Origin: a virus
Taxonomy: Duplodnaviria > Heunggongvirae > Uroviricota > Caudoviricetes
Strand: one strand, 5' to 3'
DNA length: 64,000 nt
Virus record (IMG/VR): IMGVR_UViG_2703718819_000007
The notes beneath the pieces were generated by a model. That model was not told the DNA's origin. It did not search any database and saw nothing but the letters and a program-made list of their open reading frames with translations. Numbering within the stretch: position 1 is the first letter of the stretch; each line of letters begins with the position of its first letter. A program made the position numbers and the translations under genes. Shown piece after piece: positions 20,835-38,029 of this stretch.

Positions 20835-20835
20835 A

Positions 20836-21786: not shown

Positions 21787-22057
21787 TTTTCTCTTCGCTC
21801 CGGTATACAAGAATTACAACGTCACCTCTGCTAATTACGCGAGCTGGATCTCCTGGCTCCATGCTGTCAATCCCGAAGGCTTCGGAAAACGCATTCATTG
21901 CCTTCTGGCGTTGATCCTGCTTACGGCATTTATTCCATTTTTTCAGTAACAACAGCGATAGCCACCGCCCGGCGCAGAACATAATGTAAAAATAACCAAG
22001 AAGCGCCAGACCTGTGTTGAGGGCCGTATCGATCGTTATAGTGGTGTCTATGCTCAC
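21773..22057 (-). CDS. Small hydrophobic hypothetical protein
   Basis: ORF coupled in operon. Confidence 0.4.
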   Translation of the reverse strand: MSIDTTITIDTALNTGLALLGYFYIMFCAGRWLSLLLLKKWNKCRKQDQRQKAMNAFSEAFGIDSMEPGDPARVISRGDVVILVYRSEEKNERD

Positions 22058-22275
22058 TTCACACCTCTCTGTTTGTTGATAAGTTCAATATCCTGCTGGC
22101 AACTGGCGCAAGTTCGGCATCCGCGAACAGCCTGGCGTCGCCGCTCATCTATCGGATCGCCACACTCGCAACAATGAGTAGCAGATGGGGCATTACTTTC
22201 GGATTTGTATTTTTGCAGGGAGAGATTGCGCTGCAATTCTTCGATTTCAGCGGCATTGTCGATGATATCTGCCAT
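22054..22275 (-). CDS. TraR/DksA-family C4 zinc-finger protein
   Basis: CCECGDPIDERRRQAVRGCRTCASC motif. Confidence 0.65.
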   Translation of the reverse strand: MADIIDNAAEIEELQRNLSLQKYKSESNAPSATHCCECGDPIDERRRQAVRGCRTCASCQQDIELINKQRGVK

Positions 22276-22322
22276 TTTCCTTTCCTTCAGGCATGAAAAA
22301 AGGAGCCGAAGCTCCTTTGGTA

Positions 22323-22946
22323 TCAGAATTCAAATTGTCTTGCTCTTAGTTGCGCTAGCATACTTCTGGCCCTATGCACCATATAGTTGGCGGGATCAAG
22401 TTTTGCTGCTTCGCGGAGCAATGTGTCGCGAGTCCGGTTGGTTATATGACGAGTCTCGTAGGCCAGATCAAACAGTTTCCCGTAGTAATCAGAATTCAGT
22501 TCTCTCATGACGGGGTATAGCTGCTTACTGAGTTGTTGTGCTTTTTCCATCCAGAGTTGAACGTAGCAGAGCAGGATGATGTCTTCTGCTGTGAATTGCT
22601 GCTCAGTTTGTACTGGCTGAATGTTGCGAAGTTTCTTTTCGCACTCGATGAAGTATCGGCGTATCTGGCGGCCTTTTTCGTTACGTTCAACCATCGCAAG
22701 CTCTTTGGCTGTGTCGAGGGTGAGGTGGTAATCCTTGCGGCGGCGGCCTGGAGTTTTCGCCAAATTTGGCGAAAATAGAATGTAGTCTAAATTTTCTACG
22801 AATCCATACTCGTTTAGCTTGGCCCGTATCCAGTTAGAAAAATCTTTACCTACCTCTAAAAATCCATGCAAATCACGCGCGTTCACCAGAAGCGTAGGTT
22901 CATTTGAGATTGTACCTTCAAACACAGGGATGAGTTGAGTGGTCAT
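22323..22946 (-). CDS. Phage antirepressor (AntA-like N-terminal domain plus C-terminal domain)
   Basis: MTTQLIPVF...ARDLHGFLEV...NLDYILFS...RKDYHLTLDTAKELAMVE; AGGAGG RBS. Confidence 0.7.
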   Translation of the reverse strand: MTTQLIPVFEGTISNEPTLLVNARDLHGFLEVGKDFSNWIRAKLNEYGFVENLDYILFSPNLAKTPGRRRKDYHLTLDTAKELAMVERNEKGRQIRRYFIECEKKLRNIQPVQTEQQFTAEDIILLCYVQLWMEKAQQLSKQLYPVMRELNSDYYGKLFDLAYETRHITNRTRDTLLREAAKLDPANYMVHRARSMLAQLRARQFEF

Positions 22947-23195
22947 GATGACCTCCTTTGGCTTTTTTCGAGAAATGCCACCACAAAATGTGGTGCCGGG
23001 AGGCTCGAAACGGCCCAAAAGATACCGCGGACTTATTCCCCTTGCGGGTGTTGTATTCGTCGCCCTCCCGACATTGATCGGGGATGTGACCGCACACTGT
23101 GCTATCACTGAATAACAGGCATAAAAAATCCAACACTGACGGGGTTGGTTTAATCCGCTTTTGGGAGGTTTTCGAGGCCTCGGCGCGGAGTATAG

Positions 23196-23483
23196 TCAGT
23201 ATTGGACGCAGTCGTCAACCATCGCCGTTTCTTTGGCTGTGTCGAGGGTGAGGTGGTAATCCTTGCGGTTGTGACCGCCTCTACCAGATGTTTGCTTTCC
23301 CAAATTGGAAAGCAAAATATAGTCTTGATTTTCAATGAATTCGTATTCTGAAATGCGATTTGTAATCCATGCCGCAAACACCTTTTTCACGCCTAAAAAA
23401 GCATGCAGATCGCGGGCATTGCAGAGTAGGGCTGTTTCGTTGTCGATAGTGCCGTTGAATACGGGGATGAGTTGATTAGCCAT
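23196..23483 (-). CDS. Truncated paralog of the antirepressor N-terminal domain
   Basis: MANQLIPVFNG...ARDLHAFLGV...QDYILLS...RKDYHLTLDTAKETAMVDD; ~60-bp nucleotide near-identity with 22690-22750. Confidence 0.55.
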   Translation of the reverse strand: MANQLIPVFNGTIDNETALLCNARDLHAFLGVKKVFAAWITNRISEYEFIENQDYILLSNLGKQTSGRGGHNRKDYHLTLDTAKETAMVDDCVQY

Positions 23484-23810
23484 AATTATGACTCCTGACG
23501 TTTTAGTATTGACTGCCACCTTAGTGGGGTGGCGGGCTTCAACTACCGCGTCAGACGGCGGAGCGTATTTCCCGAAAGGGTATTGTATTAGGCTCTCTCG
23601 ACCCGCCATTGATATGGCGATACCTGTAAACAGGCATAAAAAAGCCGCAAAGCTATCGGGTGCGGTTGACCGCTGACGTTGTAGTGCAGTCAGTATGCGA
23701 TAGCTCTGGCAGATTTGTCAAATCGTGCAGTAACATCCTTTTCTTCCTTGCCATTTCTCAATGATGACAAAGGGTGGATTCGGATTGGTATTGGGACAAA
23801 AGTGAGACAC

Positions 23811-23844
23811 ACAAAGCTTTGCATCGGCTTACAAAGCTTTGCAT
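23811..23844. repeat. Two direct copies of acaaagctttgcat 20 bp apart next to the prophage/ynfG junction; candidate integrase arm-type sites
   Basis: Exact 14-bp repeat at 23811-23824 and 23831-23844; related ctttgca occurs at the junction. Confidence 0.5.
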
Positions 23845-23924
23845 GTTTTTCAATGTTGGGACGTGTGAGCGCAGAAATGACGGGCTATCTAATTGATTTT
23901 AAACGATACGTAACCAACTTTAAA

Positions 23925-24002
23925 ATCTTTGCACGCCAGTTCGCAGGTTTTACAGCCAGTACAGCGGCTGGAATCGATAAAAAATCCATATTGTGTGGTC
24001 AT
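23925..24002 (-). pseudogene. ynfG: ynfG 5' fragment (Fe-S subunit of DMSO-reductase-family enzyme), truncated by prophage insertion
   Basis: MTTQYGFFIDSSRCTGCKTCELACKD then divergence into phage sequence. Confidence 0.7.
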
Positions 24003-24012
24003 GGGCTACTCC

Positions 24013-26439
24013 TTAAACCTTTTCGATCTGGACAAGATTGCTGTGCGACGGGTTTCCCTTTGCCAGCGGTGAAGGGCGGTGAGAGGTCAGAATATTGATA
24101 CTGCCGCCGTGATCGACCCGGTCACCAAACATATCCGCTTTAAGCCACGCACCTTGCCCGATGGCGGTAACGCCAGGCAGAATACGCGGAGTCACTTTTG
24201 CGGCAATCAGCATTTCTCCATTATTGTTAAATACCCGCACGGTATCGCCATGACGGATACCGCGTGCCTGAGCATCAATGGGGTTGATCCACACCTCTTG
24301 TGGGCAGGCCTGCTGTAACACATCAATATTGCCGTAGCTGGAGTGGGTACGCGCTTTGTAGTGGAAGCCCGTTAACTGCAGTGGATAGGTTTTCCGCAGG
24401 GGATCGTCCCAGCCATCAAAACCTGGGGTATACGCAGGAAGGGGATGAATAATTTCATCTTTTTTCAATTCCCAGGTATCTGCAATCTTCGCCAGTCGTT
24501 CAGAATAAATTTCGATTTTCCCCGAAGGTGTTTTCAACGGGTTTGCCTGTGGATCTTCACGGAATGCGCGGAAAGCGACGTAGTGTTCTTCCGGGCATTT
24601 TTTCTTAAAGATCCCGGTCGTTTTCATCTCCTCGTAGTCGGGCATCTCAGGGTTACGTTCCTTCGTTTTCGCATGGAGATATTTGATCCATTCATGCTGA
24701 CTGCGACCTTCAGTAAAGGTTTGATAAACGTCTGGTCCTAAGCGTTTGGCGACTTCACTCAGCATCCAGTAGATGGGTTTGCGTTCAAATTTTGCTGAGG
24801 TTGCGGGTTGGGCGAGGATCACATAGCCCATATTCCCTGCAGATTCATGAGAGATAAGGTCTTCTTGCTCTGTTGGCATCAGGTCGGGCAACAGGATATC
24901 GCAATACTTAGCCGAGGCCGTCATGAAGTGGTCAATGCCAACAATCATCTCGCACTTGCTGTCATCCTGAAGCACCTCATGGGTGTGATTGATGTCGCCA
25001 TGTTGATTGATCAATGTGTTACTGGCGTAGCACCATAAAAACTTGATGGGGACATCCAGTTTTTCTTTTCCACGAACACCATCACGGGTCGCGGTCATTT
25101 CCGTACCATGGTCGATGGCATCTGTCCATGTAAAGACGGAAATCTGCGTTTTAACAGGATTCTCAAGCATCGGGAACCATTCTACCCCCAGATCCCAGCT
25201 ACCTTCGCGTACACCTGAGTTGCCGCCGTTTATGCCGACGTTACCGGTGAGAACGGAAAGCATGGCAATAGCGCGGGACGTTTGCTCGCCGTTGGAATGT
25301 CGTTGTGGCCCCCAACCCTGACAAATATAAGCAGGTTTTGCTGAACCGATCTCTCGTGCCAACTGGATAATTTTTTCTGCCGGGATGCTGGTGATTTTTG
25401 CTGCCCATTCCGGCGTTTTAGCTATGCCGTCAGGCCCTTCGCCCAGAATATAGGCTTTATAATGCGCGTTACGTGGTGCGTTGGCGGGCAGCGTTTTTTC
25501 ATCGTAACCAACACAATATTTGTCGAGAAATGGCTGATCGACCATGTTTTCAGTAATCAGTACCCAGGCAATCGCACAGGCCAGTGCGCCATCGGTGCCA
25601 GGGCGAATGGGCAGCCATTCATCTTCACGCCCGGCAGCAGTGTCGTTATAACGTGGATCGATGACGATCATGCGTGCGTTTGAACGTTCGCGGGCTTGCT
25701 CGACGTAGTAAGTGACACCACCGCCGCTCATCCGCGTTTCTGCCGGGTTATTTCCGAACATAACGACCAGTTTCGTATTGGCGATATCATCCGGGCTGTT
25801 GCCATCATTGGCACCGAACATATAACTCATTGCGGCACTGATCTGTGCGGTACTGTAGCTGCCATAGCGACTGAGAAAACCACCGCAAGAGTTCATCAGA
25901 CGGTACGGGACGTTTGAGTTGGTGATGTTTCCGCCATCTACGCCTGTTCCGTACAGGACATGTACAGCCTCATTGCCGTAATCTTTCAGGATCCGCCGAA
26001 GATTATCACTGATGGTATCCAGGGCTTCGTCCCAACTTATCCGTTCAAATTTACCTTCACCGCGCTTGCCGACGCGCTTCATGGGATATTTCAACCTATC
26101 AGGATGATTCATCCGTCGGCGGATAGAGCGCCCGCGTAAACACGCTCGAACCTGATGGTTACCGTAGACGTCGTCACCTGTCGTATCAGACTCCACCCAG
26201 TACACGGTGTCATCTTTCACATGCAAACGTAACAGACAGCGGCTCCCGCAGTTAACGGTGCAGGAACTCCAGACCGCTTTCTCTTCTACCGGAGCCTCTG
26301 CCGCCCGGACCATTTGGGAAAATGGCAGAGTGAAAGCACTGCTTGCCAGCGCAAGACTGCCAAGTGCGGAGGTTTTCATCAGACTTCTACGGCTGATTTC
26401 AGCCTTCATGAGCGCCTCTGTGGTATGGATTTTCATCAT
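24013..26439 (-). CDS. ynfF: DMSO-reductase-family molybdopterin oxidoreductase catalytic subunit YnfF (Tat signal)
   Basis: RRSLMKTSALGSLALA twin-arginine signal, CxxCxxxC Fe-S motif, 808 aa. Confidence 0.85.
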   Translation of the reverse strand: MMKIHTTEALMKAEISRRSLMKTSALGSLALASSAFTLPFSQMVRAAEAPVEEKAVWSSCTVNCGSRCLLRLHVKDDTVYWVESDTTGDDVYGNHQVRACLRGRSIRRRMNHPDRLKYPMKRVGKRGEGKFERISWDEALDTISDNLRRILKDYGNEAVHVLYGTGVDGGNITNSNVPYRLMNSCGGFLSRYGSYSTAQISAAMSYMFGANDGNSPDDIANTKLVVMFGNNPAETRMSGGGVTYYVEQARERSNARMIVIDPRYNDTAAGREDEWLPIRPGTDGALACAIAWVLITENMVDQPFLDKYCVGYDEKTLPANAPRNAHYKAYILGEGPDGIAKTPEWAAKITSIPAEKIIQLAREIGSAKPAYICQGWGPQRHSNGEQTSRAIAMLSVLTGNVGINGGNSGVREGSWDLGVEWFPMLENPVKTQISVFTWTDAIDHGTEMTATRDGVRGKEKLDVPIKFLWCYASNTLINQHGDINHTHEVLQDDSKCEMIVGIDHFMTASAKYCDILLPDLMPTEQEDLISHESAGNMGYVILAQPATSAKFERKPIYWMLSEVAKRLGPDVYQTFTEGRSQHEWIKYLHAKTKERNPEMPDYEEMKTTGIFKKKCPEEHYVAFRAFREDPQANPLKTPSGKIEIYSERLAKIADTWELKKDEIIHPLPAYTPGFDGWDDPLRKTYPLQLTGFHYKARTHSSYGNIDVLQQACPQEVWINPIDAQARGIRHGDTVRVFNNNGEMLIAAKVTPRILPGVTAIGQGAWLKADMFGDRVDHGGSINILTSHRPSPLAKGNPSHSNLVQIEKV

Positions 26440-26496
26440 TACTCACTTATTGCTTTTCAAACAAAATGTCATGCCAGAATTTATGATTGTCGTGGG

Positions 26497-27523
26497 TTAT
26501 ATTTTTTCGATCTCGACCAGATTAGTGTGCTGCGGGTTTCCCTTCGCCAGTGGTGAAGGGCGCAGAGTGGTTAGCGTATTCACACAGCCGCCATGGTCGA
26601 TTTTATCGCCAGACATATTGGCCTCGTGCCAGGCTCCCTGGCCCATAGCGCTAACTCCAGGGAGAATACGTGGTGTTACTTTGGCTGGTAGCCGAACTTC
26701 GCCACGATGGTTAAACACCCGCACCATATCGCCGTTGGCAATCCCACGTTTCTGCGCATCTATAGGGTTGATCCACACCTCCTGACGGCAGGCAGCCTTC
26801 AGGAGATCAATATTGCCGTAGGTCGAGTGAGTACGGGATTTGTAATGGAAACCAAACAGTTGCAGTGGGAAGGTTCTACGTTCAGGGGAGTCCCAGCCTT
26901 CAAAGGTAGAGGCATAAACTGGCAGTGGGCTTATCACTTCATCTTTTTCCAGTTCCCAGGTACGGGCAATTTCCGCCAGCTTGCTGGAATAAATTTCAAT
27001 CTTACCGGAAGGTGTTTTAAGTGGATTTGCCTCGGGGTCGTCACGAAATGCTTTGTAGGCGACAAAATGACCATTGGGATCTTTACGCTTATAGATACCC
27101 ATTTTTTTCAGTTCGTCGTAAGACGGTAACGCCGGATCTTTGGCAAGCATTTTGGCGTACAGATGTTGTAACCATTGTTCCTGCGTGCGACCTTCAGTGA
27201 ACTTTTGATAGACGTCAGGTCCAAGACGTTTCGCGACTTCACTCAGGATCCAGTAAATCGGTTTGCGTTCGAATTTTTCGCTGGTGACAGGCTGGAGGAA
27301 AATGAGATATCCCATGTTACCGGCGTAGTCGTTAGGAATAATATCTTCCTGCTCAACGGTCATCAGGTCTGGCAGCAGAATGTCGGCATATTTTGCCGAT
27401 GAGGTCATAAAGTTTTCGATGACCACAATCATTTCGCATTTCGATTCGTCCTGCAGAATTTCATGCGTTTTGTTGATGTCAGAATGCTGATTAACGAGGG
27501 TATTTCCCGCGTAGTTCCAGATG
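26497..27523 (-). pseudogene. ynfE: ynfE 3' (C-terminal) fragment, separated from its 5' part by the 6.7 kb insertion
   Basis: Translation ...ESIWNYAGNTLVNQHSDINKTHEILQDESKCEM... to ...VEIEKI paralogous to the YnfF C-terminus; upstream part of the ORF reads into element DNA. Confidence 0.8.
27513..27523. repeat. Left copy of 11-bp direct repeat agttccagatg (target duplication or att core)
   Basis: Identical 11-mer at 34224-34234; joining the flanks restores an in-frame ynfE (KFIWNYAGN). Confidence 0.75.
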
Positions 27524-27588
27524 GACTCCACTGTCAGACGGATGGACGGACTTGAAGTAGTTGACTCAACGCTACTTAAGGTCCTGAT

Positions 27589-29211
27589 ATGACTGACATT
27601 AACCATGACAATACTGTATATCCATCCAGTTCTTTCTCTGGGTCTCCCTATCTGTATCAGCAAGTCTACACCTCAAGTCCTGACACAAGGCTGACACAAA
27701 TCAACCTACTCGGCGTGGCTTGCTCGCTACTTGCTAAGCCTCAGTTAGTCCGTAGAGCCAATGGTCGATATACTATCCGCTTCAGACTCAAGGGACAGAC
27801 CATCCCGTTTCTTTCAGTATCGACCCGAAGCACAGACAGGAGAGTAGCCACAATGCGTCAGAGAGAGCTTGCAGCCACAGCTAAGTCCTTCATGTTGGAT
27901 AGGCCTGATGTCTCGCTACAGGAGCTTACAGAGCACCTCCGGTCTATGGCTGAGCAGTTCCTGACAGACGCTAGTGACGATTACTGGAATGGACTTGAGG
28001 TCGCTACTTTGGTGGACGAGAAGTCCAACCTGAAGGAGCTAGCCGCTACGCAAGCCTTAAGTCTGGACCAGCAGAAGGGCATAAGGTTAGCGCTTGAAGT
28101 CCTGACCGCAGCACAGCAGAGGGTAGACACTGGTGATACCTCTGGTCTGATTAAGCTGATTGATGATAATAACCATACTGATTACTCAACTATAGGCGAC
28201 TCTACGTCAATTCTGAAGAATGAGCAGGGGGATAGACCAGCAGTTTTCACACAGGAGCCCCAACCTGAGGTCACTATCGCTGACCAACCAGCTATCTGTA
28301 GTTTTTCTGAGCTAGTGTCCTCGCTGCTGGCTGAGAAGGTCCAGACCCTGAAGTCATCCAGCTACAAGGACCTGTCGTCCTCACTGAATACCGTCTCTCG
28401 GTTCTTACCTGAAGACATGGACCTGATGTCCCGCTCTGAGTGGCTGGCTGTCAGGGACGCTATGCTGGCTTCTGAGGTGAGACCGTCGACGATTAACAAG
28501 CTGCTGACTAAGGCGAAGATGTGTCTTGACTACGGTCTGATGAATGGGCAACTTGAGGGCCGCAACCCTATTGAACGGATGAAGCTGACCAAGGATATCG
28601 ACTCCAAGCGCAGAGCGTTCACAGACGAGGAGCTGGAGAGACTTCTGGTCCGTGTTGAGGCTGAGTATCAGTTCACACGACACACGGCTCACACGACCTC
28701 TGAGGCCCGTAGATGGGCGTCTCTGGTGTCTGTAGTTACTGGCGCTCGGTCTGCTGAGGTCTGCCACCTGACTAAACGTGACATTGTAACCTTAGACAAT
28801 GGACTGGTCTGTATCGACATCAACGAAGATGGGGACGGTAAGTCTGTGAAGAACAAGCATTCAGTCCGACTTGTGCCGTTGACCGATGGGGCCTGTGGTC
28901 TTGACCTGAAGTCCTTCCTCGAATGGGTAGACATGCAGCCTGACGAGGGTCCTCTCTTCGGGATGACTCCAAGCGCATACTCTAGCTGGTTTAACTCTAG
29001 GGTCCTGACTGAGGCCCTAGGAGACTCTCAGGATGTCTCTCTCCACAGTCTGAGGCATTGGCTGGCGACCCGCATGAAAGAGCGTGGAGTCAATCTGGTG
29101 GATGCTCAGGGCATCTTAGGCCATAGCAGTCAGTCCATTACGTATGACCTGTACGGGAAAGGACATGCAGTCCAGAGACTGGCTGAGGTGCTGAAGACAG
29201 CTTTACTTTAA
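27589..29211 (+). CDS. Tyrosine recombinase/phage integrase (start uncertain: ATG 27589, GTG 27715 or ATG 27853)
   Basis: C-terminal HSLRHWLAT...GHSSQSITYDLYG catalytic motifs (H-x-x-R, Y); N-terminal RYTIRFRLKGQ arm-binding-like motif. Confidence 0.85.
   Translation: MTDINHDNTVYPSSSFSGSPYLYQQVYTSSPDTRLTQINLLGVACSLLAKPQLVRRANGRYTIRFRLKGQTIPFLSVSTRSTDRRVATMRQRELAATAKSFMLDRPDVSLQELTEHLRSMAEQFLTDASDDYWNGLEVATLVDEKSNLKELAATQALSLDQQKGIRLALEVLTAAQQRVDTGDTSGLIKLIDDNNHTDYSTIGDSTSILKNEQGDRPAVFTQEPQPEVTIADQPAICSFSELVSSLLAEKVQTLKSSSYKDLSSSLNTVSRFLPEDMDLMSRSEWLAVRDAMLASEVRPSTINKLLTKAKMCLDYGLMNGQLEGRNPIERMKLTKDIDSKRRAFTDEELERLLVRVEAEYQFTRHTAHTTSEARRWASLVSVVTGARSAEVCHLTKRDIVTLDNGLVCIDINEDGDGKSVKNKHSVRLVPLTDGACGLDLKSFLEWVDMQPDEGPLFGMTPSAYSSWFNSRVLTEALGDSQDVSLHSLRHWLATRMKERGVNLVDAQGILGHSSQSITYDLYGKGHAVQRLAEVLKTALL
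27681..27700. repeat. Left arm-type repeats tgacacaagg-c-tgacacaaa
   Basis: Same 20-mer recurs at the right end (34136-34155) in direct orientation. Confidence 0.6.
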
Positions 29212-29218
29212 GTAGGAA

Positions 29219-29270
29219 GACCCAAGGTGGAGACCATATACGGCTTGATGGTTGAGACCTTGGGTCACTG
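29219..29270 (+). terminator. Long-stem hairpin after integrase stop; possible terminator or processing site
   Basis: gacccaagg ... ccttgggtc 9-bp inverted repeat. Confidence 0.35.
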
Positions 29271-29399
29271 AAGTCTGACTGAAGTTAGGGAGGGTGATAA
29301 TAATCATAATCCCTCCTGACTATAGGCCCACTGGTTCGCCTTCGGCTGTCCGACTCTAAGTCTGTCTGTGGTCTTATTTAAACTGCGTCCTAAACTCCA

Positions 29400-29650
29400 G
29401 TCCCTCCAAATTCCTATGGTCTCCTCTTGACATTCCTGTTTAACTGTGAGTCGCCTCTGGTCTCTCTTTATATATACTTCCTTAATTCCTGAGGCGTCTT
29501 TAGTCCTTGACATTCTGTCCAACCTGTGAGTCACATCCGGTCCTCCCTCTTTATATTTACTTCCTTAATTCCTAGGGTCGCCTTAATCCTTGACATCCAG
29601 TCCAGCCTGTGAGTCACATCCTGTCGCGCTACTGTATGCATCACCAGTGG
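29400..29650. repeat. Three tandem ~80-83 bp repeat units each containing TTGACAT and palindrome TGTGAGTCACA; candidate operator or iteron array
   Basis: TTGACA at 29427, 29507, 29590; cttccttaattcct and ctgtgagtcac recur with the same period. Confidence 0.65.
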
Positions 29651-29652
29651 TG

Positions 29653-29675
29653 GACTTGATTATCACTATAGGGGA
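29653..29675 (+). promoter_or_regulatory. T7-type single-subunit phage-RNAP promoter motif (tatcactatagggga)
   Basis: 12/12 match to T7 core TCACTATAGGGA (-8 to +4); 36 nt upstream of an RBS-preceded ORF. Confidence 0.6.
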
Positions 29676-29705
29676 ACCAACTAATTCAACGACAGGAGAT
29701 ACTCT

Positions 29706-30074
29706 ATGGCACGACCAATCGCAACTCACGACAACACGTTCACCAAAGCCTACTTGCAGCAGCACTGCGGGGACCTGCTGTCATTCGATGGTCAGGGTGA
29801 CTTGAGTGGCTGGCTGGATGATGTCCTTACTGGTGCTGGTCGCCTGAGCGAATCAATGGCAAGCAATACCAAGCCTGTCAGCCCATACTTGATTCTGACC
29901 CAACTACTAACGCACGACACATTAACTGTAAGCGCTGTGCAGGAGTCCCTGAGCCGTAAGCGTGTTGCCTTGGGTGAACCTATGGTTTCAACTCGCTACG
30001 CTCGCTACGTCTATTCTACGGTGGTCAGCGCCAGTAAATCCGTCAAGTACCACGCCAGTAAAGCTGGTTCATGA
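29706..30074 (+). CDS. Hypothetical protein (122 aa), first gene downstream of a T7-type promoter
   Basis: AGGAGA RBS 6 nt upstream of ATG. Confidence 0.6.
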   Translation: MARPIATHDNTFTKAYLQQHCGDLLSFDGQGDLSGWLDDVLTGAGRLSESMASNTKPVSPYLILTQLLTHDTLTVSAVQESLSRKRVALGEPMVSTRYARYVYSTVVSASKSVKYHASKAGS

Positions 30075-30095
30075 TAAAGGACCCTAAACTATCAC
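30073..30095 (+). promoter_or_regulatory. Second T7-type promoter motif (tatcactatagggaaga)
   Basis: Shares exact 13-mer tatcactataggg with 29660-29672. Confidence 0.6.
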
Positions 30096-30504
30096 TATAG
30101 GGAAGACCAACCTTGCCTCTGAGTCTGATGCGTCAGAACATGCGAGCATCTGGTCAACCGACATTAAGTATCTCTCCTAAGTAATCAAGGCCCGTGACCG
30201 CCTCTGTCAGACCTCCTGTATGACCTCCAGCTCGTTAGCGTTCTTTAGTCGTCTCGGTTAGTAGCTCGTCTACTCACTACATTGGCTTAAGTCTATCACC
30301 GCTCACCATCTGGAAGTCCTTACAGCTCGTCCTGACATGCGGTCGCACCTTTATACGTACATGGAGAACATGGTCACTCCAGACCGTCAACATTTAACCA
30401 TTCACTTTCGTTAAGCACTTTCTGATGGGTCCGTTTAGGATGCGTCTGAATGGTGCGGACTCCATGTGGAGACAGAAAGTGCTTTACCAAAGGAGCATCT
30501 TTGT

Positions 30505-31020
30505 ATGAATACCGAATTACCAGTAACTAACCGCCAGTTCTTAATCATCCTGCTGACCAATGCAGAGTCCAGTGTCGATTGCTGTCGCTATAACTTAGAC
30601 CTGCTGAAGTTATCCCGATGGTATGCCCAGGCGGAAGACTGGGACTATGAGAAAATCCGGGAGATGTACGCGGAGCCTATCCAGTCATACCTCCAGACAC
30701 ACACCGAGGAAGAGCTGAAGCGTGGCCTGCAGGACATCTTCTATTTCAACAATCCTTACACCTGTGAGGGTGACTCAGAAGAGATGGATTGGATAGCGTC
30801 ACGCTCTGATGCCGACTTGAAGCACATCTCTAACGCGATGATGCAGGTGGAGAGCAAATGGTCTCGCCGACTTCAGGTCCTAACTGAGGATTACGAAAAC
30901 GGCACCTTTGATAAGCTGGTCCCACCTGATACCGAACGTCTTCAGGCGAAAGCTGACCAAGAACAGCGCTTCAAGTCCTTTGCCGAAGCTCTGGCGGGAG
31001 GTGCCTCTTATGACTTCTGA
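30505..31020 (+). CDS. Hypothetical acidic protein (~171 aa)
   Basis: AAGGAG RBS 10 nt upstream of ATG 30505. Confidence 0.55.
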   Translation: MNTELPVTNRQFLIILLTNAESSVDCCRYNLDLLKLSRWYAQAEDWDYEKIREMYAEPIQSYLQTHTEEELKRGLQDIFYFNNPYTCEGDSEEMDWIASRSDADLKHISNAMMQVESKWSRRLQVLTEDYENGTFDKLVPPDTERLQAKADQEQRFKSFAEALAGGASYDF

Positions 31021-31504
31021 CAATAAGCAGGAATACACCATTCATATCTTCGGTCAGGACATCACCAGTCAGGACGGATTGTTTCGACTCGATGAAATTC
31101 GCCGGGTCGGCATTCAGATTGGCAAAGTAGAAGACACCGAGTCGACACAGTACAAGCGTTTTGCTCAGACCAAAGTTGGAAAGCTACTGAGGAATAGGCA
31201 GAAAATCCGCCTTATCCGAATGGGTGAACTCGGGTCTACCGTCCTTGCTGACCCCGCCGCTACTGTAGAGTTTGGTCGCTGGCTGGACTTTGAGTACGGA
31301 CTGGCAGTCTCTGAAGCCTTCGTGTCTATGACCTCCAGCGCCACCGTGCAGTCTGCTGTAGCGTCTGCTGAGGACATCAAGCCGGAGACCAAGGAATTCA
31401 TCCAGCGTCATGGCACAGGCCTCTACATCGCCGGACGTGAAGTCTCACAGGCTGAGTATTCAGACTATCAAGCTGTGACCGCTGGTCGCTGTGAGTGGAG
31501 GTAA
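31009..31504 (+). CDS. Hypothetical protein (~165 aa)
   Basis: ATG overlapping the upstream stop (translational coupling). Confidence 0.5.
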
Positions 31505-31510
31505 GTAATC

Positions 31511-31684
31511 ATGGCTATGATTGACCCACGCACACCTGAGGGCCGCATGACTCTCCGTTACCGTGGCTACCGGACTGAAGTCCTCCTCAGAGAGCTTGGT
31601 CTAGACCCGGAAGATGAGACCCGCCAGCACCAATCCCGAGACGAGCTGATAGCGCAACTGGTCGCTATGAAACTGTCTGCCTAA
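31511..31684 (+). CDS. Small hypothetical protein (57 aa)
   Basis: GGAGG RBS upstream of ATG; not in ORF track because <60 aa. Confidence 0.45.
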   Translation: MAMIDPRTPEGRMTLRYRGYRTEVLLRELGLDPEDETRQHQSRDELIAQLVAMKLSA

Positions 31685-31780
31685 TTTTAAAACCTTTTGA
31701 GATGACCGATGCGGGGAGACCCGTAGGCGCTACTGCGTCTGCGATACCGATAGTCTCAACTCTCAAGAGGAGAATTACCT

Positions 31781-32272
31781 ATGATGTTCAACAACAACAA
31801 CTGGAAGCTGTCAGTCACCGACATCAACCTTTATGAAAACACTGTGAGTCTGGACGGTCAGCCCTATCCGCTGTCGCTCGCTATCAAGACCCTCATTCCG
31901 GGCTACCTGTCAGGCCTGCCGTCTACCAGCCGCGAGGCAATGGAGTTACTGGAAGCTCTGGCTGAAGCTGGCGTAGCTATTGGCAACTTCTTCAGTAATG
32001 ACCTGATGACCGCCTATGGTCGCCGCCAGCTTAACAAACGAGCTGAGGCTGAGCGTATCGCTAAAGAGCTGGCATCTCAGAAAGAGCGTATGCGTGAAGA
32101 GAACATGACCGATGCAGAGTGGCAGAAAGAGCTACAGCGCCGCGAACAAGTCAAAGCTGAACGCCGGACCTATGGTGAGAACCTCCGCAGTGCAACCCAT
32201 TCCGCTGGTCGCTCCCGTGCCGCTATTGTCGCTGACCTTGAGTCAGGCGGTAACTGGCTGGACAGCTTATAA
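31781..32272 (+). CDS. Hypothetical protein with charged coiled-coil C-terminal half (163 aa); scaffold-like by position
   Basis: AGAGGAGA RBS; K/E/R-rich helical region; immediately precedes the 328-aa ORF. Confidence 0.5.
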   Translation: MMFNNNNWKLSVTDINLYENTVSLDGQPYPLSLAIKTLIPGYLSGLPSTSREAMELLEALAEAGVAIGNFFSNDLMTAYGRRQLNKRAEAERIAKELASQKERMREENMTDAEWQKELQRREQVKAERRTYGENLRSATHSAGRSRAAIVADLESGGNWLDSL

Positions 32273-32356
32273 GACACACAGTCCCTGACCCGATGTTAGG
32301 GACTCCTCAGTTTTGAGGACTCACAGTATTTAAACTAATTTAGGAGATTGATTATT

Positions 32357-33343
32357 ATGACGATTAAAGACGCTTTCCAGTTTGGCATTGAGCCAGTACG
32401 CATCACCGATACCGACAACATTCAGGTCAATGAAGGTCTGCCGACTAACGCTGACCCGCAGGTCTACGCCCTCCAGTTAGCTAAGACGGTTAAGGCTATG
32501 CTGAACGGTGTACTTAAGGACGCTCAAGAGAACATCCCGTTCCCTGTAGAAGTCCTGCCGACCCGTAACAGCTTACCGACCCCAATCATTGCCCACACTC
32601 TGGCTGACCGCTCTGTGGTCGTTCCTGTCCGTGGTGGCAAGCGACCTGAAGTCGTGACCATTCCGTCTGGACAAGAAATCGTGGTCGAACCAATCGAGCA
32701 GGCTATTCTCATCTCTGAGCAGACCACTCTCTGGGACGCCAAGTCATCCACCGGATTCACTCAGGGCACACTTCAGCAGGACGCTATGAACATCTGTGAG
32801 AATGTGGTCCGTACCATCAACGCTCACATGGTCGACGTTCTGGAATCCTCTAAGCTGCTGAAGACCGTAGAGCTTCCTGTCCTGACTGGTAGCCTGACCG
32901 CTAAGGCAGACGCTATCATGGACGCTCTGTATGAGAACACAGAGCCTTCTTTCGGTTCTGAGGTGTCTAACTACGGTATTATCGCTCATGAGAGCCAACT
33001 GAAAGCACTGTCCCGTCTGGCTGCTAAGCAAGGCTTCTCCGGTGAAGACGCTATCGTCGATATGCTGGGAACAGACATCGCCTACTACAACGGTGAAGAC
33101 AAGGGTGTATTCATGCTGGCTAAACGCTTCACGGCTCTGAGCTTCGGTTGCTTCCGTCACGATGGCGAGAATATTACGGTCGTCCTTTCACGTGATGGCG
33201 ACTCTCAGTCCCACGACTTGGAAATCCTCGGTAAAGTGTACGTTGTCGCTGAAGCTGCTACGACCATCAAGATGGGCACTGGCTCAGCTACTGCCGTCCT
33301 GCCTGTAGTCAAACGCCTGAAGTTCACCAAGACCGAAGCGTAA
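32357..33343 (+). CDS. Hypothetical 328-aa protein, largest non-integrase gene of the element; candidate structural (capsid-like) protein by context only
   Basis: AGGAGA RBS 8 nt upstream; leader tttaaactaatttaggagattgattattATG resembles the T7 gene-10 leader. Confidence 0.5.
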   Translation: MTIKDAFQFGIEPVRITDTDNIQVNEGLPTNADPQVYALQLAKTVKAMLNGVLKDAQENIPFPVEVLPTRNSLPTPIIAHTLADRSVVVPVRGGKRPEVVTIPSGQEIVVEPIEQAILISEQTTLWDAKSSTGFTQGTLQQDAMNICENVVRTINAHMVDVLESSKLLKTVELPVLTGSLTAKADAIMDALYENTEPSFGSEVSNYGIIAHESQLKALSRLAAKQGFSGEDAIVDMLGTDIAYYNGEDKGVFMLAKRFTALSFGCFRHDGENITVVLSRDGDSQSHDLEILGKVYVVAEAATTIKMGTGSATAVLPVVKRLKFTKTEA

Positions 33344-33348
33344 GACCA

Positions 33349-33588
33349 ATGGGTAAGAGCATTAGTAAAGGCTTCAGGTCCATCGCCAAGGGCCTGACAG
33401 GTGGTGGTGGGACTCAAGGTGGGGCTTCGGTCCCGCCTCCTGTAGCTCCTCCTGTAGCTCCTCCAGATGACGCTCAGCAAGCTGTAGTCGATACCCAAGG
33501 TCAGGAGACCGAGGGAGGTAAGACCATGAGCAGAGGTAAGTCTGGACTGAATATCAGCAGGACTTCAGGTGGTGGCCTGTCACTGTGA
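33349..33588 (+). CDS. Small Gly/Pro-rich protein (79 aa)
   Basis: ORF 5 nt after previous stop. Confidence 0.4.
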   Translation: MGKSISKGFRSIAKGLTGGGGTQGGASVPPPVAPPVAPPDDAQQAVVDTQGQETEGGKTMSRGKSGLNISRTSGGGLSL

Positions 33589-33826
33589 TTAAGACATCTA
33601 TACAGCCTGTGGAGGGTGGACGATATCAAGCAACAATCTGGATGACACGCAGAGTCTATAAGCGGCTATGCTGGTCACTGGCTGAAGCTGAACAGTGGGT
33701 GAGACGTAAAGTGCCTACCGTTCAATCGTTCCAATCATCATGATAACTATGGTCTGGACCAATGGTCTGGACCTTTGTTTTGTACTAGTTATCTAGTGCA
33801 GTAGTACAATAGACGAAGGAGGCTTT

Positions 33827-33982
33827 ATGTCCATGACTTCCGCAGACCTAAGGTCCCTCCTGACTCTGGTCTATAAACTCGTGCTCCTCTCTGTGGGTCT
33901 CTATATGGTCCTCTCCGGTCGACTCGGTGTGAATGTATTCGACACTCTGTCTAAGGCTGTGGGTGGGCTTCTGGGGGCTTAG
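33827..33982 (+). CDS. Small hydrophobic (single transmembrane) protein, 51 aa; holin-like by size only
   Basis: Strong AAGGAGG RBS; LVYKLVLLSVGLYMVLSG hydrophobic core. Confidence 0.4.
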   Translation: MSMTSADLRSLLTLVYKLVLLSVGLYMVLSGRLGVNVFDTLSKAVGGLLGA

Positions 33983-34135
33983 GTTTGGACTCACAGTGGG
34001 ACCGATGGTTTCTGACAGAAAAATGTGAATGACCATCTAATACATTAAGCCAGCAGACTTCTCCCCCATAGCCCCGCCTCAAGTCCAGACCGAGGCCACC
34101 GGGGTCCTGACCAGCCGTCTAGACATCCCGTCTAA

Positions 34136-34168
34136 TGACACAAGGCTGACACAAAGCCTGACACAAAG
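34136..34168. repeat. Right arm-type repeats: three copies of tgacacaa(g/a)g
   Basis: Direct repeats at 34136, 34147, 34159 matching the left-end 20-mer. Confidence 0.6.
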
Positions 34169-34223
34169 TCCTTGACTCAATGCAGGACCTCAGACCTACT
34201 AAGGGTCCGCTTCAAGTCCTTGA

Positions 34224-34234
34224 AGTTCCAGATG
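34224..34234. repeat. Right copy of 11-bp direct repeat agttccagatg
   Basis: Identical to 27513-27523. Confidence 0.75.
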
Positions 34235-35634
34235 AACTTAATGGGCACATCCAGTTTATCTTTGCCGCGGACGCCGTCGCGGATTGCCGTCATTTGCGGA
34301 CCATGATCGATAGCATCTGTCCAGCTGAAGCAGGAGATTGACATTTTGACCGGATTATCCAGCACCGGCAGGCGTTCTATGGTAATGGTATAGGTCGATT
34401 CACGCGCGCCACTATTTCCGCCGCTGATGCCGACATTGCCCGTCAAAATAGGTAACATAGCAATAGCGCGTGCAGTCAGTTCGCCGTTTGCCTGGCGTTG
34501 CGGCCCCCAGCCCTGGCAGATATAAGCGGGTTTTGCTGTGCCAATTTCACGCGCCAGTTTGATGATACGGTCTACCGGGATACCGGTAATTTGCGAAGCC
34601 CACTGCGGCGTTTTCGCTGTGTTATCATCACCTTCACCAAGAATATAGGCTTTATAGTGACTATTTTTGGGTGCATCTGCGGGTAAGGTTTTTTCGTCAT
34701 AGCCGACGCAGTATTTATCGAGAAAAGGTTGATCAACGAGATTTTCGTTAATCAATACCCAGGCAATACCCGCAACCAGCGCGGCATCGGTGCCCGGGCG
34801 AATAGGGAGCCATTCATCTTCACGACCAGCAGCCGTATCGGTATATCGCGGATCGATAGCAATCATTTTGGCGTTCGATTTCTCGCGCGCTTTTTCAAGA
34901 AGATAAGTGATGCCACCGCCGCTCATGCGGGTTTCTGCCGGGTTGTTACCAAACATCACGACCAGCTTGCTGTTTTCAATATCCGTGGTGCTGTTGCCAT
35001 CATTACTGCCGTAGGTGTAGGGCATGGCACAGGAAATTTGCGCGGTGCTGTAGGAGCCATACTGATTGAGTGAACCGCCGTAGCAGTTCATCAGGCGTTT
35101 GACCGCCGAGGCTGATGGCGAAGAGCGGGTCATATTGCCGCCAACGATCCCCGAAGAGTACTGAATATATACAGCCTCATTGCCATATTGTTCGACGGTT
35201 TTCTTCAGGCTACTGGCGATAGTATCCAGGGCTTCATCCCAGCTAATCCGTTCGAATTTGCCTTCGCCGCGTTTGCCCACGCGTTTCATTGGGTAATTCA
35301 AGCGATCGGGATGATTAATACGCCGACGGATGGATCGACCACGCAAACAGGCGCGTACTTGATGATTGCCATACTCGTCGCTGCCGGTGTTGTCAGTTTC
35401 CACCCAGGTGACTTCATTATCTTTAACATGTAGACGAAGTGCACAGCGGCTACCACAGTTGACGGAACAGGCACCCCAGATCACTTTTTCGCTGGCCTGT
35501 TGTACCGCTGCCGCTGCACTGCGCAGGGTGAACGGTAAAGAAAAACCGCCTGCAGCCAGCGCCAGAGAACCTATCGCGGTTGATTTAACGAGTGTTCTGC
35601 GGCTGATGCCCACCATTCGGTCATTTTTGGACAT
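34224..35634 (-). pseudogene. ynfE: ynfE 5' (N-terminal) fragment with Tat signal, interrupted by the element
   Basis: MSKNDRMVGISRRTLVKSTAIGSLALAAGG...; reading frame runs into element sequence and stops at 34177. Confidence 0.85.
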
Positions 35635-35832
35635 AACTCACTCCCTGTTCTTTATCGTTATATAAATGTTTATATATTGAATATTTAGCGCGCTAACAAT
35701 AGAGGGAGTCTACCCATTTTGGGTTAAGAATTATTAATCCATATCAATAGAAGGGTATGAGTAATAAGGTGGGATTATGTTGTATGTTCAAATCGCCGGA
35801 TGTGTCGTATCCGGCGTTCAGTCGATAATGTA

Positions 35833-36141
35833 TTACTGCGGTTCGGCAGGCGCGCCATCCTGGGTAGACTGCGCGGGAGCAGAGACGTTACCGCTGGTGG
35901 TGCGGGTATAGAGAATTTTATGCGTATCATTAGCGCAATGGCCGACGACCTGGGAATCAGGCTGATCAACCTGGTCATTGGGTACAATACTTAACGTGAA
36001 GCTGCTTTCGGGTACGCCATTATTGATAATGCGCTGTGATATATCGCTCTGTATGCGCTCACAGGATCCCGGCGCGGCGAGTACCGCGGGTGAGGCGAGG
36101 GCGAGCAGAAGCGCGGCACAGCAGGTTGAGAGTTTCATCAT
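35833..36141 (-). CDS. ynfD: YnfD (DUF1161) secreted protein
   Basis: MKLSTCCAALLLALASPAVLA signal peptide. Confidence 0.75.
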   Translation of the reverse strand: MMKLSTCCAALLLALASPAVLAAPGSCERIQSDISQRIINNGVPESSFTLSIVPNDQVDQPDSQVVGHCANDTHKILYTRTTSGNVSAPAQSTQDGAPAEPQ

Positions 36142-36245
36142 AAGCTCCTTACGCGAAGATAACTTCTTTAAGCATAGCATTTAACGTGTAAAGTACTGTA
36201 TTTGCTACTATGATTGAGAATCATCTCTACTCTCTGGTGACTGTT

Positions 36246-36956
36246 GTGAAATACAAATTACTACCATGCTTACTCGCGATATTCCTCACAGGATGTGACC
36301 GCACAGAGGTAACACTTTCATTTACCCCTGAGATGGCCAGTTTCTCTAATGAATTCGATTTTGATCCGCTGCGTGGTCCGGTAAAAGATTTCACTCAGAC
36401 ATTAATGGATGAGCAAGGTGAAGTGACGAAACGTGTTTCTGGGACTTTGTCGGAAGAAGGCTGTTTTGATTCACTCGAATTACTGGATCTGGAAAATAAT
36501 ACCGTGGTCGCTCTGGTACTGGACGCCAATTATTACCGTGATGCCGAGACGCTGGAGAAGAGAGTACGTTTACAGGGAAAATGCCAGCTAGCAGAATTAC
36601 CTTCTGCCGGGGTGAGTTGGGAAACCGATGATAATGGCTTCGTGATTAAAGCCAGCAGCAAACAAATGCAGATGGAATATCGCTATGATGATCAGGGTTA
36701 TCCACTGGGTAAAACCACGAAAAGTAACGACAAAACATTATCTGTCAGCGCCACGCCATCAACGGACCCGATCAAAAAATTAGATTACACAGCGGTTACT
36801 TTACTGAATAATCAACGAGTTGGTAATGTAAAACAGAGCTGTGAATATGACAGTCACGCCAATCCGGTGGACTGTCAGCTGATCATTGTTGATGAAGGAG
36901 TAAAACCCGCCGTCGAAAGGGTTTACACCATCAAAAATACGATCGATTATTATTAA
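36246..36956 (+). CDS. ynfC: YnfC lipoprotein (UPF0257), GTG start
   Basis: KYKLLPCLLAIFLTGC lipobox. Confidence 0.75.
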   Translation: MKYKLLPCLLAIFLTGCDRTEVTLSFTPEMASFSNEFDFDPLRGPVKDFTQTLMDEQGEVTKRVSGTLSEEGCFDSLELLDLENNTVVALVLDANYYRDAETLEKRVRLQGKCQLAELPSAGVSWETDDNGFVIKASSKQMQMEYRYDDQGYPLGKTTKSNDKTLSVSATPSTDPIKKLDYTAVTLLNNQRVGNVKQSCEYDSHANPVDCQLIIVDEGVKPAVERVYTIKNTIDYY

Positions 36957-36958
36957 TG

Positions 36959-37519
36959 CTATTGTGCGGTCGGCTTCAGGAGAGTCTGACCCGGTGTTTT
37001 GTGCTCTGCCAGATACTGATGCTGGAATATACACATGCGAATGGCATTACGATATTGACCATTAATAAAGAACTCGTGCATCAATTCACCTTCAACCGTA
37101 AAGCCAAGCTTGCGGTAAATGTGAATCGCTTTTTCATTCTCTTTATCGACGATCAGATACAGCTTATAGAGATTGAGAACGGTGAAGCCATAGTCCATTG
37201 CTAATTTGGCGGCACGGGTTGCCAGACCTTTCCCCTGATACTCCGGGGAGATAATTATCTGAAATTCTGCCCGGCGATGTACATGGTTAATTTCCACCAG
37301 CTCCACCAGACCGGCTTTTTCGCCGTCACATTCCACCACAAAGCGTCGTTCGCTCTGATCGTGAATATGCTTATCATACAGATCAGAGAGTTCAACAAAG
37401 GCTTCGTAGGGTTCCTCAAACCAGTAACGCATCACACTGGCGTTATTGTCGAGTTGATGTACATAGCGTAAATCTTCACGCTCCAGCGGGCGTAGCTTAA
37501 CACTGTGGGCGCTTGGCAT
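36959..37519 (-). CDS. speG: Spermidine N1-acetyltransferase
   Basis: [39 protein letters not shown]...; GNAT fold, 186 aa. Confidence 0.9.
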
Positions 37520-37553
37520 AACGTGTCCTTACATTCCTTAAATCAATAACAGG

Positions 37554-37895
37554 TTAGGGGGTAATAACGCGGCCAGTTCGACGGTCCAGGCAGCGCAAAG
37601 TATTTGGCTCCCAGTAGGCATTGATGTTGGCGCTTTGCTCACATTTATCGCGGTTATCAAAAGCGGCGTCGGCTTTATCCCACTCTTTTTCAGTGCGTTT
37701 ATTCACTTTCTGACGCAGATTGCGCGTGTCATTCCATTGCTCTTTTTCCATAGCGGCGTGCTGGCGGCTTTGTGCACTGTCGCCAGACTCAATCACCAGT
37801 TTGTTAGTTTCGGCATGAACAGTTGTGCTCAGTGCCAGTGCGCAAGGCAGCAGAAAAGCGAGCAGGCCGATTCGTTTGCTGAGAGTGATTTTCAT
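37554..37895 (-). CDS. ynfB: YnfB (UPF0482) secreted protein
   Basis: Signal peptide; 113 aa. Confidence 0.75.
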
Positions 37896-38029
37896 AATTC
37901 ATTCCCTGTATGAATGATTAAAGGAGATTCTACACCATCCACTGCGAACGCAAAACGTACCAGGAGGGTGTTTATATTGATGATATTATGTCGCCCTATA
38001 ACTATACATGATGTCAATAAGTGACAAAG

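Follow-up and report, generated by a model that had tools for sequence, protein, structure and literature searches.

The ynf locus and the insertion in ynfE

The window analyzed here, the whole 64,000-nucleotide stretch deposited as IMG/VR virus record IMGVR_UViG_2703718819_000007, is Escherichia coli chromosome, and the main subject of this work is a 6.7-kb element that it carries within the gene ynfE of the ynf operon. Positions 17772-27527 and 34224-61694 match genome JNEC-KY179 at 99.97%, and positions 1-24000 and 60500-64000 show 100% identity to STEC2018-607 and several further human isolates of Shiga toxin-producing E. coli (STEC). According to the alignment coordinates, the window differs from STEC2018-607 in two structural respects only, a deletion of ~124 bp in a prophage tail-fibre gene and an insertion of 6,711 bp in ynfE (counting one copy of an 11-bp repeat). 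Alignment with the ynfD-clcB region of K-12 gave two collinear blocks, window positions 23918-27527 and 34224-39703, whose K-12 coordinates overlap by 15 bp. The original prediction, that two separate mobile elements have hit the ynfEFG operon and that a 6.7-kb element splits ynfE, is thereby borne out, all the more as both junctions recur in complete genomes. Its view of the insert as a mobile element also holds, but it had treated the insert as anonymous. The most interesting content of the interval, namely T7-type promoters and the genes for a capsid protein and a gp7.3-like protein, had escaped it; these features are listed below with the others of the element.

27513-27523: left attachment core (attL), AGTTCCAGATG, 11-bp perfect direct repeat with 34224-34234
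27589-29211, plus strand: tyrosine integrase, open reading frame (ORF) of 540 aa; Pfam Phage_integrase 1.7e-14, phrog_1 4.7e-43, annotated as site-specific integrase in relatives
27681-27700 and 34136-34155, plus strand: exact 20-nt repeat, TGACACAAGGCTGACACAAA
29293-29324, plus strand: hairpin (GGGAGGG, 16-nt loop, CCCTCC)
29426-29625, plus strand: 83-bp tandem repeat, 2.5 copies, between the integrase gene and the first phage-type promoter
29654-29676, plus strand: phage-type promoter 1, ACTTGATTATCACTATAGGGGAA, with the exact K1F core TATCACTATAGGG; predicted +1 at 29671
29706-30074, plus strand: orf122, first gene after promoter 1; phrog_23123
30083-30105, plus strand: phage-type promoter 2, CCTAAACTATCACTATAGGGAAG, with the full K1F consensus CTAAAC-TATCACTATAGGr; predicted +1 at 30100
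30466-31504, plus strand: cargo region (variable slot) with orf184 (30466-31020) and orf198 (30908-31504, probable start 31013)
31511-31684, plus strand: orf57, small gene upstream of the capsid module, conserved in 12 of 16 tabulated loci
31781-32272, plus strand: orf163, coiled-coil DUF6971 protein, 90% identical to a RefSeq "DUF6971 family protein"
32357-33343, plus strand: major capsid protein gene with predicted HK97 fold, 331-aa ORF (listed start TTG at 32348; start of the homologues ATG at 32357)
33349-33588, plus strand: orf79, homologue of T7-group gp7.3; phrog_1320 over its full length, E 1.8e-11
33585-33743, plus strand: orf52, final gene of the phage-promoter unit, annotated without function
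33751-33783, plus strand: terminator-like hairpin with T-run, after orf52
33827-33982, plus strand: orf51, preceded by a palindromic promoter-like region; small hydrophobic (membrane) protein
34224-34234: right attachment core (attR), second copy of AGTTCCAGATG

All genes of the element lie on the plus strand. The core AGTTCCAGATG occurs once in K-12 ynfE and twice in the window, and in silico removal of the insert yields an intact ynfE of 808 aa. In JNEC-KY179 and STEC2018-607, which match the window at 99.97-100% to the left and right of the element, ynfE is intact, from which a recent gain of the element follows. The integrase may have its true start further downstream. One 20-nt repeat copy (34136-34155) lies near attR within a run of TGACACAArG units and is mirrored by the copy near attL; these repeats are probably arm-type integrase binding sites. 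The 83-bp repeats are confined to the subgroup of ynfE elements having K1F-type promoters, and a sigma-70 promoter search of them returned no match beyond chance.

Scans of the element proteins against PADLOC, Pfam, NCBIfam, and PHROGs recognized only the integrase, gp7.3, and one PHROG without known function; orf184 and orf198 matched no family in any of the four, and Rfam found zero RNA families inside the element. Among its 10 ORFs no portal, terminase, tail, polymerase, or primase/replication gene was recognized with Pfam, PHROGs, and NCBIfam. The element has several traits expected of a satellite: an own integrase with attachment sites, an empty site in near-identical genomes, and an incomplete set of virion, packaging, and replication genes.

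As a side observation, a motif of 9-10 nt appears six times in both orientations, as CTGTGAGTC at 29444, 29527, 29607, and 31842 and as GGACTCACAG at 32317 and 33989. Each 83-bp repeat contains it, and further copies precede the capsid gene and follow orf51; a role as regulator binding site is possible.

Promoters of the K1F type

The core sequence TATCACTATAGGG occurs exactly two times in the window, at 29661, 33 nt before orf122, and at 30090, directly after it. In the genome of phage K1F (genus Kayfunavirus, T7 group), TATCACTATAGGr is found at nine sites against 0.02 expected, preceded by CTAAAC. Side by side, the second site of the element reads GACCCTAAACTATCACTATAGGGAAGACCAAC and the K1F promoter before the capsid gene GGACTAAACTATCACTATAGGGAGACCAAG. 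Promoter 1 is conserved at the same position in five related loci (L001, L002, L006, L011, and L012). A search of 2.9 million IMG/VR contigs with the 19-mer CTAAACTATCACTATAGGG returned almost only contigs of 39.1-40.5 kb, i.e., of T7-like size. Three contigs fell outside this range, with 72.9, 29.3, and 15.7 kb, and the first two of them carry the capsid gene of this element family. The two sites are promoters of the K1F RNA-polymerase type, belonging to the genus-specific 23-nt promoters that are characteristic of the Autographiviridae; judging from this identity, they would be transcribed by the phage polymerase.

A second link to the same phages came from comparison of the whole element with 50,697 phage records, in which the only nucleotide match was the 32-bp hairpin, found exactly in the K1F-like phage phiYIO1-1, where it is intergenic and near the right genome end. 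This hairpin is conserved in all six K1F-promoter-type ynfE elements examined, the one in the window included. Between K1F (38987-39015) and phiYIO1-1 (40046-40077) its loop is inverted, with the flanks running the same way in both. Outside the promoters and this one hairpin, the non-coding DNA of the element showed no similarity to the genome ends and packaging regions of K1F.

Capsid module and gp7.3-like gene

A structure model of the 331-aa protein, built on a deeper alignment (the model from 11 close sequences reached a predicted local distance difference test score, pLDDT, of 46 and was unusable), assigns it the HK97 capsid fold. The best structural matches of the model include encapsulins and the Pyrococcus furiosus virus-like particle, with phage capsids scoring similarly, as do those of capsid-forming phage-inducible chromosomal islands (cf-PICIs). 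On the sequence level, tblastn of the capsid protein against the 50,697 phage records gave zero matches, and the IMG/VR matches to its gene stem from prophages called in genomes rather than from viromes. In one family member the capsid protein has an Ig-like Big_2 domain at its C-terminus, as is typical of virion proteins.

The preceding gene, orf163, is 27% identical to a Pfam-DUF6971 protein encoded upstream of a distant capsid homologue. A DUF6971 gene stands directly before the capsid gene in every case, even where the capsid proteins are merely 25-32% identical; this position and the coiled-coil character suggest orf163 as a candidate scaffolding protein. Downstream of the capsid gene, orf79 aligns with K1F gene 7.3 at 38% identity over 79 aa (tblastn, E 5e-7), which was the sole match when all element proteins were searched against K1F, whereas its Pfam VirionAssem_T7 hit (E 0.0057) stays below the cut-off. 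The small T7-group virion protein gp7.3 ("host range and adsorption") is needed for adsorption and tail assembly.

A widespread element family with exchanged promoters

Relatives detectable by megablast were present in 313 of 5,426 complete E. coli genomes. They sit in ynfE or next to a tRNA-Gly gene beside the E. coli type III secretion system 2 (ETT2) island, where they have a different integrase (~30% identity). Scanning one genome per species with an alignment of the closer capsid sequences as query extended the family to Shigella flexneri (with two copies in one genome), Leclercia, Buttiauxella, Citrobacter, Enterobacter, Kluyvera, and Shimwellia. Its members measure 5-7 kb (those in ynfE ~6.4-6.8 kb) and comprise a tyrosine integrase, two to six T7-group promoters, variable cargo, a DUF6971 gene, and an HK97-fold capsid gene, with gene order and intact ORFs conserved across genera. 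The cargo slot of relatives holds KilA-N, AP2/HNH, HNH, Rha, or DUF4145-type genes. Contigs of 6.4-6.8 kb with homologous content had suggested free circles; the one inspected proved to be an ordinary chromosomal fragment and the idea was dropped.

Across 16 loci, 39 CACTATAGGr sites were found. Every one is on the coding strand, in the stretch from integrase to capsid gene (56.6 kb in total), compared with zero on either strand of 230.7 kb of flanking DNA. In parallel, the specificity region of the promoters varies, with CTAAACTAT, ATTATACCCT, AATAACCCCT, AAACCCA, and AAGGAAGGTA as examples, and the promoter of one ynfE element reads ATTACAyCCTCACTATCrGGAGA. Position and strand being kept while specificity changes is what would be expected from selection for recognition by different phage polymerases. 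The AACCCACACTATAGGGAGA promoter class occurs eight and six times in two phage contigs of ~39 kb, while for ACCCTCACTATCGGGAGA, the type seen in locus L010, no phage could be assigned from IMG/VR. Several elements possess tandem pairs of two different promoter types, ~26 nt apart, which look like a dual-specificity arrangement. Such pairs were seen at 5490-5525 and 6042-6078 of locus L013 and likewise in L014 and L020, always with two pairs per element.

Distant capsid relatives (25-32% identity) reside in mini-elements of the same build, from integrase to DUF6971 and capsid genes, with repeated T7-like motifs of their own. Six AATTrmmACyCACTAATGGGAGA sites were seen in one of them. In another there are two TTAAAAmCCCTCACTATTG sites, which resemble promoters of Pseudomonas phage gh-1, and this element appears to split a flavoprotein gene. 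In a Joint Genome Institute (JGI) metagenome contig, the region 4893-13031 with a 25% identical capsid appears to split a flavoprotein gene (FAD_binding_2 / Succ_DH_flav_C), so that gene-splitting integration is not limited to ynfE.

A relative in E. coli strain 3045 (NZ_CP103570.1; 1102-8861 of locus L009) lies beside tRNA-Gly and a degenerate ETT2 type III secretion island. Its integrase is a different one, T7-type promoter sites number three, and the label "peptidase M16 family protein" given to its DUF6971 gene is probably wrong. The same capsid module sits at this tRNA-Gly/ETT2-type site in O26/O103/O111-type genomes of enterohaemorrhagic E. coli.

Disruption of the ynf operon

The remains of the operon, all on the minus strand, are distributed around the element as follows.

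23918-24002, minus strand: ynfG 5' remnant, first 85 nt (28 codons, translation MTTQYGFFIDSSRCTGCKTCELACKDFK), then prophage sequence
24013-26436, minus strand: ynfF, intact
26497-27527, minus strand: ynfE 3' fragment, C-terminal 343 codons, 99.6% identical to K-12; Pfam Molybdopterin and Molydop_binding
34224-35634, minus strand: ynfE 5' fragment, 470 ynfE codons, with a read-through ORF of 485 aa

Further claims of the original prediction concerned the neighbors of ynfE. In agreement with it, ynfF is intact (807/807 aa identical to K-12 YnfF), and a Qin-type prophage follows, beginning 5.4 kb past the ynfE start codon. The gene ynfF is cut off from ynfG and ynfH. The interruption of ynfG by a prophage was likewise found, but the gene is split rather than truncated: in near-identical genomes its remaining 540 nt lie at the prophage's other end. 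Core chromosome of ~17 kb has thus taken up three mobile elements. Comparison of the locus across strains revealed the identical ynfE junction in 149 and the identical ynfG junction in 82 of the 5,426 complete E. coli genomes, O104:H4 outbreak strains being among the latter, so the operon disruption is not a chance pattern. Both insertions occur together in at least PS2Canimalfeces12, RM10410, EC2, and ES5. The part of ynfE in question is present in a median of one and a maximum of two copies per E. coli genome, second copies thus being practically absent.

Both ynfE and ynfG are broken, 6.7 kb of genes in the opposite orientation stand between ynfF and the operon promoter, and the distance to ynfH and dmsD is ~63 kb; it is a reasonable inference from this arrangement that Ynf-dependent reductase activity has been lost. 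E. coli retains the paralogous dmsABC operon, which is not a copy of ynf. The disruption of ynfE would in principle be reversible, as predicted from its restoration in silico; the pattern of a gene split without restoration, repaired by excision and recurrent in independent genomes is that expected of regulated gene integrity.

The operon disruption itself is already known biology, as both target genes are published attachment sites. The gene ynfG is that of Shiga toxin 1 (Stx1) phages in RM10410 O113:H4, in Shigella sonnei 75/02, and for POCJ-13 (PMC10562709, PMC5447701), and ynfE has been described as disrupted by integrative elements of ~7-8 kb in E. coli and S. flexneri and as a candidate for regulated gene integrity (PMC7192596). 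For the lineage, a loss of Ynf-dependent selenate/tellurate reduction is predicted, which matters less than the element.

Neighboring prophages

Two prophages frame the ynf locus and extend beyond the window.

1-23917: right-hand ~24 kb of a lambdoid short-tailed prophage in ynfG, running past the window start
40995-64000: Qin-type lambdoid prophage, directly after rspB, running past the window end

Within the window, the ynfG prophage contributes tail fibre genes, a 2,806-aa LPD38 protein, and Ea22/TraR/Ant genes. Over these 24 kb the window is 100% identical to STEC2018-607, JNEC-KY179, and other genomes. The right junction of the prophage is 23917/23918; the attachment core is the 7-bp sequence CTTTAAA (23918-23924), which the left junction of JNEC-KY179 shares. 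Its counterpart in the collinear genomes JNEC-KY179 and STEC2018-607 is a Stx1a prophage of ~63 kb, at the far end of which the 3' part of ynfG (540 nt), ynfH, and dmsD stand beside the integrase; the K-12 segment with the remaining ynfG, ynfH, and dmsD found no match in the 64-kb window. In the collinear JNEC-KY179, the genes stxA1a/stxB1a are situated ~17 kb upstream of where the window begins and hence outside it. Integration in ynfG with a short core repeat is that of the Stx-phage class; the attachment gene is the same as for the Stx1 phages POCJ-13, S. sonnei 75/02, and RM10410, with no difference of substance, and in RM10410 (O113:H4) a ynfE element likewise adjoins the Stx1a prophage.

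Further observations concern single prophage genes. A single ORF of 2,806 aa (10574-18994, plus strand), an LPD38/LPD5 domain protein in relatives, fills 8.4 kb of the ynfG prophage. Compared with the five closest complete genomes, ~122-124 bp are missing at window positions 311-313 inside the tail-fibre gene (41418-41539 of JNEC-KY179 locus L003), which shifts the frame (ORFs 24-392 and 311-1513); this gap could be a genuine deletion or a repeat-related assembly error. Rfam sRNA-Xcc1 gave two matches on the minus strand, 23000-23072 with 56 bits and 23523-23607 with 53 bits (the gathering score being 53), both in the antA/antirepressor region, the prophage end adjoining ynfG.

The Qin-type prophage encodes an integrase (40995-42290), an excisionase (42310-42561), an exonuclease (42634-45105), the dicB/ydfD region, lysis genes, and a terminase (60697-62799). 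In JNEC-KY179 its large terminase gene is interrupted, at the site matching window position 61694, by an element (37211-46001 of locus L005) with an integrase, a helix-turn-helix regulator, a BRO-N protein, an Icd-like protein, and a primase, which looks like a satellite of the P4/PICI type; in the window and STEC2018-607 the 700-aa terminase ORF (60697-62799) is uninterrupted.

A proposed helper-dependent life cycle and its alternatives

Our preferred reading, to which we give slightly better than even chances, is that the ynfE element is a capsid-encoding mini-satellite, i.e., a helper-dependent element, of virulent T7-like phages. According to the proposed sequence of events, the element would be silent in the chromosome until infection by a virulent Kayfunavirus (K1F-like), whose RNA polymerase would read both promoters and thereby drive expression of orf122, the cargo, and the scaffold-like, capsid, and gp7.3-like proteins. 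Portal, core, tail, terminase, and replication proteins of the helper would be diverted by the element, and small capsids filled with element DNA would be built, thereby interfering with the phage. In relatives, promoters of other specificity, often in tandem pairs, would provide the response to several T7-like phages. Scaled from T7 (T=7, 40 kb), a genome of 6.7 kb is estimated to fit a T=3-size shell. Interference with the phage appears likely as well, since the cargo slot is variable and element and helper are expected to compete for parts. The more far-reaching proposal, that an undescribed but widespread family of 5-7-kb capsid-encoding mini-satellites exploits strictly virulent T7-like phages in Enterobacteriaceae and other Gammaproteobacteria, sensing them via helper-polymerase promoters, broadening the helper range with promoter arrays, and combining own small HK97-type capsids with portal, core, tail, and terminase borrowed from the phage, falls a little short of an even chance.

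Several points weigh against this life cycle. Excision on infection, packaging, and transfer are predicted steps, and the integrase gene is located upstream of the phage promoters, which leaves the trigger of excision unexplained. Neither a packaging signal nor a replication origin nor an excisionase could be identified in the element. Between the capsid protein and T7-group capsids there is no similarity of sequence, so its fit with a T7-type portal and tail is an assumption. The 16 loci are related, and their 39 promoter sites are therefore not independent observations. The predicted junction of the excised circle (attP), TCCTTGAAGTTCCAGATGGACTCC, was absent from IMG/VR and JGI metagenome contigs, a weak objection given that E. 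coli phage lysates are poorly represented there. Finally, T7-like phages rapidly degrade host DNA, and how the element would escape this is unexplained.

The promoter evidence would also serve for a phage-triggered defence island of the abortive-infection or decoy kind, in which the promoters act as infection sensor, the proteins poison T7-like assembly, and the element remains unpackaged and moves by other routes. The variable cargo slot behind promoter 2 with its KilA-N, AP2/HNH, HNH, Rha, and DUF4145-type genes, as known from satellite defence hotspots, speaks for such a function, as does the fact that no packaging or replication function was recognized in the element proteins. Nevertheless, none of these proteins matched a PADLOC model, a full-length HK97 capsid gene has been kept together with its partner across genera down to 25% identity, which seems beyond the need of a decoy, and the conserved integrase and attachment sites together with the very recent gain in this lineage point to efficient movement from strain to strain. 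We regard defence as the sole function as unlikely, while interference and satellite transfer are compatible with each other and not mutually exclusive.

Decidedly less probable is an inert integrative element, be it generic or what decay has left of a temperate T7-like prophage, the sole relevant effect of which is to switch ynfE off and on, as the original prediction essentially saw it. Precise excision would indeed restore ynfE, which is listed as disrupted by integrative elements of ~7-8 kb (PMC7192596), and integrase-bearing T7-like phages such as LUZ100 exist (PMC10134795). A decaying remnant is nevertheless hard to reconcile with size, gene order, and intact ORFs being conserved in E. 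coli, Shigella, Leclercia, Citrobacter, Enterobacter, Buttiauxella, Kluyvera, and Shimwellia, and the exchange of promoter specificities at constant position and strand argues for selection rather than decay. Moreover, genes for RNA polymerase, DNA polymerase, portal, or tail have left no trace in the element, and the sequence of its capsid protein is unlike those of the T7 group. The structural matches to encapsulins and the P. furiosus particle bring up an encapsulin-type nanocompartment, a bacterial HK97-fold shell with the DUF6971 protein as cargo and no relation to phages. This we consider very improbable, as the gene is part of an integrase-bearing mobile element with T7-group promoters and adjoins a gp7.3 homologue, one family member has a Big_2 domain, and phage and cf-PICI capsids score like encapsulins. 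While the fold fits, no enzyme cargo was recognized beside the capsid gene.

Relation to known satellites and phages

In its way of working, the mini-satellite that we favor is most like a capsid-forming PICI, yet it does not belong to the cf-PICIs. These islands, e.g., EcCI2, have their own major capsid protein like the element; they are ~10-15 kb in size, code for portal, protease, adaptor/connector, small terminase, alpA, and primase/replicase, and obtain tails from temperate phages. In contrast, the 6.7-kb element has only the capsid, scaffold-position, and gp7.3-like genes and is apparently wired to the RNA polymerase of virulent T7-like phages; the portal, prohead protease, connectors, small terminase, alpA, and primase/replicase of cf-PICIs had no matches in it (Pfam, PHROGs, and NCBIfam).

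P4-like satellites and classical E. coli PICIs resemble the element in being integrated, integrase-bearing, and helper-dependent with a variable cargo hotspot, but their helpers are temperate P2-like or lambdoid phages, and they are induced by helper proteins acting on satellite regulators rather than through promoters for a helper RNA polymerase. No homologues of psu, delta, sid, alpha, cos, alpA, or pri-rep were found in the element.

Closer in size (~5-7 kb) are the integrase-bearing PICMIs (phage-inducible chromosomal minimalist islands) and VEIMEs (virion-encapsidated integrative mobile elements), which are thought to depend on virulent helpers as well (PMC10803314, PMC9618062). They have no capsid genes, are packaged as concatemers in full-size helper capsids, belong to Vibrionaceae and marine bacteria, and are not known to have phage-polymerase promoters. 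The ynfE element differs in its capsid gene, and alpA/Fis-type regulators had no match in family scans of its proteins. As to phages proper, tblastn against K1F detected no single-subunit RNA polymerase, DNA polymerase, portal, tail tube, or terminase, which separates the element from Autographiviridae phages and prophages.

A plausible route for element DNA into particles is given by T7 plasmid transduction: Chung and Hinkle reportedly observed in 1990 that plasmids with a T7 promoter-origin and a concatemer junction were transduced by T7, in a laboratory construct and as concatemers in normal capsids. A concatemer junction was not identified in the element.

The ynfE elements mapped with TIGER (Eco892.7.ynfE and Sfl13.8.ynfE; PMC7192596) share target gene and domain, the 7-8-kb size class, and hosts, and are almost certainly members of the same family. 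That study was concerned only with mapping and with regulated gene integrity as a proposal for ynfE; a search of its text and supplements turned up no description of gene content, T7-type promoters, or a capsid gene. Likewise, a full-text literature search with incomplete journal coverage returned no described satellites of T7-like, Autographiviridae, or Studiervirinae phages and nothing on DUF6971 or the content of ynfE elements.

Significance

Taken together, the element is a well-supported candidate for a new family, either of mini-satellites with a capsid gene of their own or of interference elements triggered by phages, that is wired to the RNA polymerases of T7-like phages. These phages are the textbook case of a strictly lytic life style and are widely used in biotechnology and phage therapy, where K1F-type phages target K1-capsulated E. 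coli. If the proposed reading is true, the family would introduce a new regulatory logic of satellites, in which direct mimicry of promoters takes the place of derepression through helper proteins, and a compact natural system of ~6.7 kb for the assembly of small HK97 capsids. At the same time, it would constitute a new source of resistance to, and of gene transfer by, therapeutic T7-like phages.

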